Below are positions 5,811-5,932 of a stretch of DNA of 11,785 nt, one piece after another. The stretch is from a virus (lineage: Duplodnaviria; Heunggongvirae; Uroviricota; Caudoviricetes). Where the stretch lies: the IMG/VR virus record IMGVR_UViG_2695420889_000011, positions 1-11,785 of that record; one strand, given 5' to 3'. Both the position numbers and the translations under genes were made by a program. Position 1 is the first letter of the stretch. Every line of letters starts with the position of its first letter. The notes under the pieces are model-generated. The model worked only from the letters and a program-made list of their open reading frames with translations, had not been told where the DNA came from and ran no database searches.

Positions 5811-5835
5811 AAAAAAACCACCCGGAGGTGGTTTC
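5811..5835 (-). terminator. Rho-independent terminator on the minus strand, downstream of the tRNA fragment
   Basis: On the minus strand the sequence reads GAAACCACC-UCCG-GGUGG followed by U7 (plus-strand A7 at 5811-5817; stem CCACC 5818-5822 with GGTGG 5827-5831). Confidence 0.55.
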
Positions 5836-5877
5836 ACGACACTGCTTATTGCTTTGATTTTATTCTTATCTTTCCCA

Positions 5878-5932
5878 TGGTACCCGGAGCGGGACTTGAA
5901 CCCGCACAGCGCGAACGCCGAGGGATTTTAAA
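5878..5932 (-). tRNA. Partial tRNA-Leu gene: 3' 55 nt only (anticodon loop to CCA), leuZ-like; att-type repeat, not a functional tRNA
   Basis: The reverse complement of 5878-5932 is TTTAAAATCCCTCGGCGTTCGCGCTGTGCGGGTTCAAGTCCCGCTCCGGGTACCA. This has a T-arm (GCGGG-TTCAAGT-CCCGC), acceptor 3' strand and encoded CCA, and matches my memory of the E. coli tRNA-Leu(UAA) 3' half. Beyond 5932 the sequence (AACTATCAACC...) does not continue as D-arm or acceptor 5' strand, so the 5' half is absent. Confidence 0.8.

Follow-up and report, generated by a model that had tools for sequence, protein, structure and literature searches.

The window analysed here, an 11,785-nt stretch of a Caudoviricetes virus record (IMG/VR record IMGVR_UViG_2695420889_000011, positions 1 to 11,785), carries part of a pipolin, a mobile element marked by the primer-independent family-B DNA polymerase piPolB, on the left, the integrase gene of a P2-like prophage on the right and, between them, half of a tRNA-Leu gene followed by a terminator (Table 1). 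A sequence-only reading of the window had taken the half gene for an attachment-site (att) repeat left by insertion of a tyrosine-integrase element into a tRNA gene, and for the junction between two mobile elements sharing one tRNA hotspot. It had left undecided which element owns the repeat and whether the repeat extends through the terminator.

The fragment is the displaced 3′ part of leuZ with its operon terminator

The half gene, read on the minus strand as TTTAAAATCCCTCGGCGTTCGCGCTGTGCGGGTTCAAGTCCCGCTCCGGGTACCA, corresponds to the final 55 nt of the 87-nt tRNA-Leu(UAA) gene leuZ (nt 33-87), from the first anticodon-loop base to the terminal CCA, and is identical at 55/55 positions to leuZ of K-12 and to leuZ of the same genome. 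Because ARAGORN called no tRNA in the window, the 5′ 32 nt of leuZ are truly missing, and the DNA to the right of 5932, beginning AACTATCAACC, bears no relation to a tRNA, in agreement with the sequence-only reading that the 5′ half has been replaced by unrelated sequence. No chance occurrence of the 55-mer is expected (0.00 in shuffled sequences); it was seen twice in the 40-kb locus that includes the window (L001) and once more in the intact gene. The assignment to leuZ follows from the adjacency of yecA, leuZ, cysT, glyW and pgsA in K-12. An assignment to leuX was rejected on the basis of the flanking genes, tyrP-yecA on one side and cysT-glyW-pgsA on the other, and of the UAA anticodon. 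At a permissive threshold, an Rfam search of positions 5700-6100 gave no tRNA-family match for the half gene and none corresponding to 3′ETS-leuZ, the spacer RNA encoded directly after leuZ; sub-threshold matches to STnc130, sroD and the Phe leader, which are terminator look-alikes, and to a tmRNA T arm were dismissed as generic hairpins.

Folding bore out the strong minus-strand terminator proposed to lie just downstream of the fragment. It has a 9-bp stem (AAACCACC/GGUGGUUU), a UCCG loop and then U7, and it is the native terminator of the glyW-cysT-leuZ operon. Folding was used in place of a consensus terminator scan of the window, which did not list the leuZ terminator; our guess is that greedy stem extension consumed part of the U-run. 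The left limit of the terminator, 5811, coincides with the end of 3′ETS-leuZ as annotated in K-12, and the right limit of the tRNA fragment, 5932, coincides with the edge of the anticodon loop, so that both limits set by the sequence-only reading were exact.

Three copies of a 124-nt repeat delimit two elements

In the matching complete genomes of Escherichia coli O145, the fragment is one of three copies of a repeat, all in direct orientation. The order is yecA, copy A, a pipolin of ~18.8 kb, copy B (the copy in the window), a P2-like prophage of ~37 kb and copy C, which forms part of intact leuZ and is followed by cysT, glyW and pgsA. Copy A is flanked by the yecA side on its left and the pipolin left arm on its right, copy B by the pipolin right arm and the phage integrase (int) arm, and copy C by the phage right arm and the remainder of intact leuZ. 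On the left, the array borders on the chromosomal genes tyrP and yecA. The intact tRNA-Leu(UAA) gene stands on the same strand as the fragment, ~37 kb away to its right, next to the genes for tRNA-Cys and tRNA-Gly and to pgsA. The fragment lacks its 5′ half in the assembly itself, and a search for the intact gene and for further copies, the check put forward with the sequence-only reading, recovered copy A beside yecA and copy C with leuZ.

A three-way alignment showed that the 124-nt block is common to copies A, B and C apart from one base, position 5825 in the terminator loop, which is G in copy B and A in copies A and C and in K-12 (loop UUCG changed to UCCG). Copy B is therefore identical to the native sequence at 123/124 positions, its edges falling sharply at the anticodon loop and where the terminator stops, and reaches 69 nt past the tRNA, through the spacer RNA and the operon terminator. 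The two copies that flank the pipolin, A and B, have five further nucleotides in common (CAGGC, 5804-5808), and on the right the match between copy A and the native gene is one base longer. The repeat runs through the terminator in every copy, which answers the question of its extent. Copy B is a hybrid site, being at once the right end of the pipolin and the left end of the prophage, which resolves the question of ownership. With three copies, an adjoining integrase gene and junctions as predicted for an att repeat, we consider it very probable that the half gene represents the middle copy, called attI in the pipolin papers, of a three-copy leuZ att repeat, separating a pipolin from a P2-like prophage.

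Table 1. Features of the 11,785-nt window at and around the leuZ att repeat
Feature	Positions	Strand	Remarks
IS3-family element end	1 to ~247		IS3 annotation
Second pipolin tyrosine recombinase	65..985	+	N-terminal ~131 aa lost to IS3
piPolB, family-B DNA polymerase	1871..4426	+	851 aa; C-terminal 27 aa replaced via deletion; pipolin marker
Truncated pipolin integrase	4338..4814	-	N-terminal 159 aa, Pfam Arm-DNA-bind_3; catalytic domain deleted; RefSeq pseudogene
Pipolin right arm	4895..5808	.	246-aa hypothetical gene (4895-5635, +) and non-coding arm to core
att identity block	5809..5932	.	124 nt; from three-way alignment and junction table; pipolin right end and prophage left end
Rho-independent terminator of glyW-cysT-leuZ operon	5811..5834	-	From fold and alignments; stem, UCCG loop and U-run
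3′ETS-leuZ small RNA, full 67-nt copy	5811..5877	-	66/67 identical to K-12 by base-by-base comparison
Displaced leuZ 3′ part	5878..5932	-	Anticodon loop, 3′ anticodon-stem arm, variable arm, T arm, acceptor 3′ strand and CCA
Anticodon-loop heptamer	5926..5932	-	TTTAAAA; right-hand edge of identity block; probable strand-exchange region
Phage arm of attachment site	5933..6038	.	Core to integrase stop; same arm after yecA-side core in PV15-279
Tyrosine integrase, P2-like (Peduoviridae-type) prophage	6039..7040	-	333 aa, transcribed toward att copy

Occupancy of the leuZ site across complete genomes

The junction itself (positions 5700-6040) matched at 100% in eight E. coli O145-type chromosomes and over its full length in 29 complete genomes, and strain 99-3311 differed from the full window at 1 nt in 11,785. 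Three strains named in PMC7385651, H10407, 99-3165 and 2014EL-1346-6, also have the junction of the window, at 96.8-97.9% identity. These matches bear on the possibility that the fragment is an artefact, either an assembly error or a decayed duplicate of the tRNA gene unrelated to site-specific recombination. Fragments of tRNA genes are at times misassembled or misannotated, but we found nothing in favour of an artefact here. The occurrence of the same junction in 29 independently assembled complete genomes excludes an assembly artefact, while the near-native sequence of the block, its sharp edges and the integrase genes on both sides argue against decay of a duplicate, making an artefact of either kind extremely improbable.

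Empty, pipolin-only and phage-only sites were all found, as expected if the junction joins two different mobile elements at one tRNA hotspot. K-12 provides the empty site, with the flanking genes adjacent. PapRG-06-5 and O145 strain RM9872 are pipolin-only, and there the pipolin right arm is joined through the core to intact leuZ; the right-hand copy, which in the window genome is copy B, overlaps the intact gene in these strains. The O157:H7 strain PV15-279 is phage-only, with the order yecA arm, core and int arm. Every junction arm in these single-occupancy genomes is the one predicted by a two-element model.

Our survey covered 5,426 complete genomes. The core with the int arm was present in 524 genomes and a pipolin-type right arm with the core in 532; both arms lay on one core in 29, and the reverse order (phage right arm, core, pipolin left arm) occurred in 0/5,426. 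The 29 double occupants fall below the ~51 expected under independence (524 x 532 / 5,426, a figure in which phylogeny is not corrected for), and give no support to a positive association between phage and pipolin. The core block was found in 7,098 copies in 5,424 of the 5,426 genomes. The resulting ~1,670 extra copies fit the occupancy, in 21% of genomes, given for the tRNA-Leu hotspot between pgsA and yecA in PMC11551731.

The survey also bears on the proposal that the pipolin and the prophage are one unit, in which a satellite-like pipolin would need the phage integrase or packaging via the shared att site and the internal copy would be a relic. In favour of such a unit, the 124-nt block is used by both elements, the pipolin in the window is without an intact recombinase, and PMC11551731 notes frequent prophage co-integration in the truncated pipolin subgroup while leaving the relationship open. 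Each element, however, occurs alone at the site with clean junctions, co-occupancy is not above the level expected from independence, the recombinases are only 21-24% identical, and the pipolin arms lack phage-arm sequence, all of which makes a single unit highly improbable.

Crossover position and order of arrival

The single-base difference at 5825 shows which part of copy B came from the pipolin. RM9872, of the same O145 lineage, has the same pipolin and no phage, and its leuZ-linked copy carries the G variant. In the window, the G is still on the pipolin arm, with the phage int arm beyond the core, and the leuZ-linked copy of this genome has A. Because the G stays with the pipolin arm, the phage exchange took place to the right of 5825, whether RM9872 predates phage gain or follows phage loss, and by descent the pipolin arm has kept the left-hand part of copy B up to and including 5825. 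The G marks only the O145 pipolin copy; its use as a general pipolin marker was rejected, PapRG-06-5 having A.

On the right-hand side, four unrelated types of element have identity blocks that end 0-2 nt beyond the anticodon loop, namely the pipolin, the P2-like phage, the prophage of the vB_EcoM-720R5 type and the lambdoid phages mEp390 and Fostie. For tyrosine integrases that target tRNA genes, the crossover lies where the identity block ends inside the gene, and an anticodon-loop class of integration sublocations was reportedly described by Williams in 2002. From the block edges and this general knowledge, we infer that strand exchange occurs in the anticodon loop, in which case nearly the whole of copy B came with the pipolin.

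We propose that the circular form of each element would carry a ~124-130-nt 3′ end of the glyW-cysT-leuZ operon, consisting of leuZ from the anticodon loop to CCA, 3′ETS-leuZ and the terminator. Strand exchange with chromosomal leuZ, catalysed by the tyrosine recombinase of the element, would most likely fall within the 7-nt anticodon loop, where the block ends. The copy brought in by the element would complete the tRNA gene, the spacer RNA and the terminator, and the previous copy would come to lie at the opposite end of the element, as a half gene without a promoter. Two rounds of this process would yield yecA, the original copy A, the pipolin, the pipolin-borne copy B, the prophage and the phage-borne copy C with intact leuZ. 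Most likely, the phage entered the intact tRNA gene regenerated by a resident pipolin.

The opposite order, in which the phage entered leuZ first and the pipolin later inserted into the displaced left-end copy of the phage (yecA arm, core, int arm), a target without the tRNA 5′ half, would produce the same final arrangement and would likewise leave the 5825 marker with the pipolin arm. Potential recipients are common, given the 524 genomes with the core and the int arm. Nevertheless, such a target would be without the 5′ anticodon-stem arm flanking the likely crossover, the same O145 lineage has an identical pipolin (G marker, IS3) without the phage, and the recombinases of this pipolin subgroup are crippled. 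Moreover, piPolB trees of prophage-tandem pipolins are congruent with those of the host genomes according to PMC7385651, and a pipolin beside intact leuZ with a distal phage was found in 0/5,426 genomes. Together, these points render a phage-first history improbable.

Several considerations weigh against entry of the phage into a pipolin-regenerated leuZ with exchange in the anticodon loop. The marker bounds the crossover only to 5826-5932. The state of RM9872 could reflect loss of the phage and not the condition before its gain, leaving the arrival order unproven, and pipolin insertion into the left-end fragment of the phage would, as stated, give the same arrangement. In the phage collection searched, there was no free phage attachment site (attP) or excised circle of this pipolin or of this P2-like phage, and, according to PMC9710591, no in vivo work has yet shown which of the pipolin recombinases acts here.

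The pipolin to the left of copy B

The polymerase gene lies to the left of the fragment, as the sequence-only reading had it, and across aa 1-824 its product shares 99% identity with the polymerase of the enterotoxigenic E. coli (ETEC) strain H10407. Identification of the element as a pipolin rests on this match, because PMC7385651 names H10407 as a pipolin carrier; the Pfam match to DNA_pol_B_2 was weak (E=0.0018, below the cut-off), and a PDB sequence search and NCBIfam gave no matches for the polymerase. The piPolB frame continues for 27 codons beyond the breakpoint of the deletion that also truncates the integrase gene, antisense to the integrase fragment (4338-4426). The polymerase consequently has a foreign C-terminal tail and 851 aa instead of 866, and its gene overlaps the integrase pseudogene.

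Both recombinase genes of the pipolin are truncated. The integrase fragment, whose start is 995 bp from the core (4814 vs 5809), matches the first 159 aa of the intact H10407 integrase (399 aa) at 100% identity and, from its position and domain, is taken to be of the IntSXT class of PMC11551731. The product of the second recombinase gene, taken from its position to be of the IntP2 class of the same paper, is fully identical to residues ~134-376 of the 376-aa PapRG-06-5 protein; the BLASTP alignment opens at residue 114 and is mismatched and gapped to ~133. The IS3 breakpoint at ~codon 131 was derived from the DNA match (window position 248 equals position 15001 of the PapRG-06-5 locus L004, where the coding sequence starts at 14608). 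IS3 content varies within O145: RM11626 has lost more of the recombinase gene, and IS3 is present twice in RM9872. Compared with PapRG-06-5, 143 nt are deleted at 1007/1008, a change that has removed the start codon and upstream region of an AlpA-like helix-turn-helix gene whose product is a putative excisionase.

A functional recombinase of its own was therefore not found in this pipolin, whereas the genes are full-length in H10407 and PapRG-06-5. Given the loss of the catalytic part of the integrase, the N-terminus of the second recombinase and the start of the AlpA-like gene, this pipolin is probably immobile on its own. These truncations bear on mobility and not on classification, because PMC11551731 treats the truncated form as a pipolin subgroup.

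The genes of the island comprise DUF262, an M48 peptidase, type I restriction-modification, IS3, the recombinase, a 212-aa gene, the polymerase, the integrase fragment and the 246-aa gene. The cargo genes (L001 2334-13934) all point at copy A, the type I restriction-modification genes have embedded cold-shock-domain and YecA-family genes, and an hsdM pseudogene adjoins IS3. The terminator of copy A is the next terminator-like element identified downstream of the cargo, in a stretch that was not scanned.

The P2-like prophage to the right of copy B

The integrase gene to the right of copy B encodes a protein with the Pfam domains Int_N (5e-32) and Phage_integrase (2.5e-22), listed in RefSeq as the 'phage integrase' WP_001300279.1, which is also present in H10407 and in O157 lysogens. 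The sequence-only reading correctly placed a P2-family integrase about 100 bp from the fragment but had the gene start there; it is the stop codon that lies 107 bp from the core. The prophage genes named in RefSeq include those for a P2-family major capsid protein, GPO scaffold, portal, terminase, tail sheath and tube, gpD, ogr/Delta and a replication endonuclease; lysis genes are also present. The nearest record in the phage collection is classed as Peduoviridae, Xuanwuvirus.

In the phage arm, window positions 5937-5958 have a weak inverted-repeat partner at 9358-9379. The palindrome AATCATAAGGTTATGATT (~5953-5970) and A/T-rich repeats in this arm could be binding sites for the integrase arm domain or for integration host factor. 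Farther to the right, in the early region of the prophage, Rfam gave two matches above gathering thresholds, the Hfq-binding RNA isrK (11387-11461, +; 58.4 bits) and C4 antisense RNA (11497-11584, +; 76.1 bits), which suggests a P1/P7-style antisense immunity module, as predicted from these matches.

Other elements carry the same block

The isolated lambdoid phages mEp390 (L008 2501-2621) and Fostie (L010 2501-2619) supplied true free-phage attP sites containing the block, 119-121 nt in length. These attP sites ('putative prophage insertion site (attP)', NC_019721.1) have the same limits as the repeat in the window, namely the anticodon loop on one side and the end of the terminator U-run on the other. 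Their block is only ~88% identical and differs in its terminator loop and in a T-stem pair, where the change is compensated; the stretch ATAAGCAGTGTCGT is kept, as are 11/12 positions of the stretch complementary to the small RNA RyhB. The integrase gene of mEp390 and Fostie lies on the terminator side of the core, and its product is 21% identical to the P2-type integrase. Since the spacer in these attP sites has diverged, integration would replace the host spacer RNA by a variant.

A further, different element at the leuZ site is the vB_EcoM-720R5 type, with the block at L009 793-916. The record of 'Escherichia phage 520873' (L007) and the vB_EcoM records were rejected as sources of a free attP: although labelled complete genomes, they start inside yecA and are therefore prophage cut-outs with host flank.

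The block with the spacer RNA and terminator is thus carried by at least three unrelated element families, and the recombinases of the P2-like phage, mEp390 and the pipolin (the one encoded next to piPolB) share 21-24% mutual identity. The simplest reading would be that any element using the leuZ site must rebuild the tRNA, the spacer and the operon terminator.

Relation to published pipolins and tRNA-gene islands

Three att repeats, with the site shared with a myovirus prophage, are described for H10407, 99-3165 and 2014EL-1346-6 in Flament-Simon et al. 2020 (PMC7385651); ETEC H10407 was the strain in which this arrangement was first noted. Mateo-Caceres et al. 2024 (PMC11551731) describe a truncated subgroup with an IntSXT-piPolB deletion and insertion sequences near IntP2, which forms a monophyletic clade and shows frequent prophage co-integration. 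The window resembles these published E. coli pipolins in its tRNA-Leu site between pgsA and yecA, its piPolB (99% to H10407), its prophage integrase WP_001300279.1, its three-repeat layout and its membership of the truncated-integrase, insertion-sequence subgroup, and we found no structural difference from them. It is an O145 variant, distinguished by the terminator-loop base change in the middle repeat, IS3 in the IntP2-type gene and the 143-nt deletion at the AlpA-like gene. Earlier papers (PMC7385651, PMC9710591, PMC11551731) thus already report the layout, the hotspot, the truncated subgroup and the sharing of the site with a myovirus prophage. To these descriptions our analysis adds the limits of the repeat at base level, a marker that bounds the crossover, the strict order in which the two elements occur (29 genomes vs 0) and the small RNA within the repeat.

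More generally, islands restore the tRNA gene that they split and leave a displaced fragment, as stated for the Islander database (PMC4383910). The window is like such islands in its restored tRNA gene, its displaced 3′ fragment in direct repeat and its tandem array; it differs in that the block continues 69 nt past the tRNA, via a regulatory spacer RNA and the operon terminator. HP1, a P2-like phage of Haemophilus influenzae, has an attP with a long block of identity to a tRNA-Leu operon, and its crossover falls within the anticodon stem-loop. The two systems would be alike in that a P2-like phage targets a tRNA-Leu gene and a long block restores downstream sequence, and they differ in host, integrase and downstream content.

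A small RNA sponge within the repeat

In K-12, the 67 nt directly after leuZ are annotated as b4759 (3′ETS-leuZ). The leuZ precursor is cut by RNase E to yield 3′ETS-leuZ, which ends in a Rho-independent terminator and pairs with RyhB, reducing the RyhB level and thus acting as a sponge (PMC6191717, which credits the sponge to Lalaouna et al. 2015). The copy in the window resembles that of K-12, including the 12-nt RyhB-complementary element, which is intact at 5835-5846, and differs in being without a complete tRNA and without the glyW promoter. Energies computed with RNAduplex for RyhB and 3′ETS were inflated by forced long duplexes, and only the 12-nt complementarity was relied on.

Orphan copy B lies downstream of minus-strand phage genes, with no predicted minus-strand terminator between. 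Both orphan copies stand at the 3′ ends of leftward gene runs, the pipolin cargo leading into copy A and the phage repressor-to-integrase genes into copy B. From this arrangement, one may speculate that the orphan copies form the 3′ ends of mRNAs, from which RNase E frees them as sponge, and that carriage of the elements would raise sponge dosage and dampen small RNA responses to iron and envelope stress; we regard this as an unlikely but conceivable function. In their available parts, PMC7385651 and PMC11551731 make no mention of 3′ETS-leuZ as part of the repeat, and we found no paper linking 3′ETS-leuZ to mobile-element attachment sites, so its inclusion in the repeat appears to have gone unremarked.

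In sum, the fragment is a textbook boundary marker: in an E. coli of a Shiga-toxin lineage, it separates a defence island of ~18.8 kb from a P2-like prophage of ~37 kb. The leuZ site also illustrates that elements of many families can insert at a single tRNA gene. Of the additions made here to the published picture, only the sRNA sponge could open new biology. If the sponge function were true, lysogeny or island carriage would mean more RyhB/RybB sponge for the cell, and in lysogens of the mEp390 type the host sponge would be swapped for a ~88% identical phage version.

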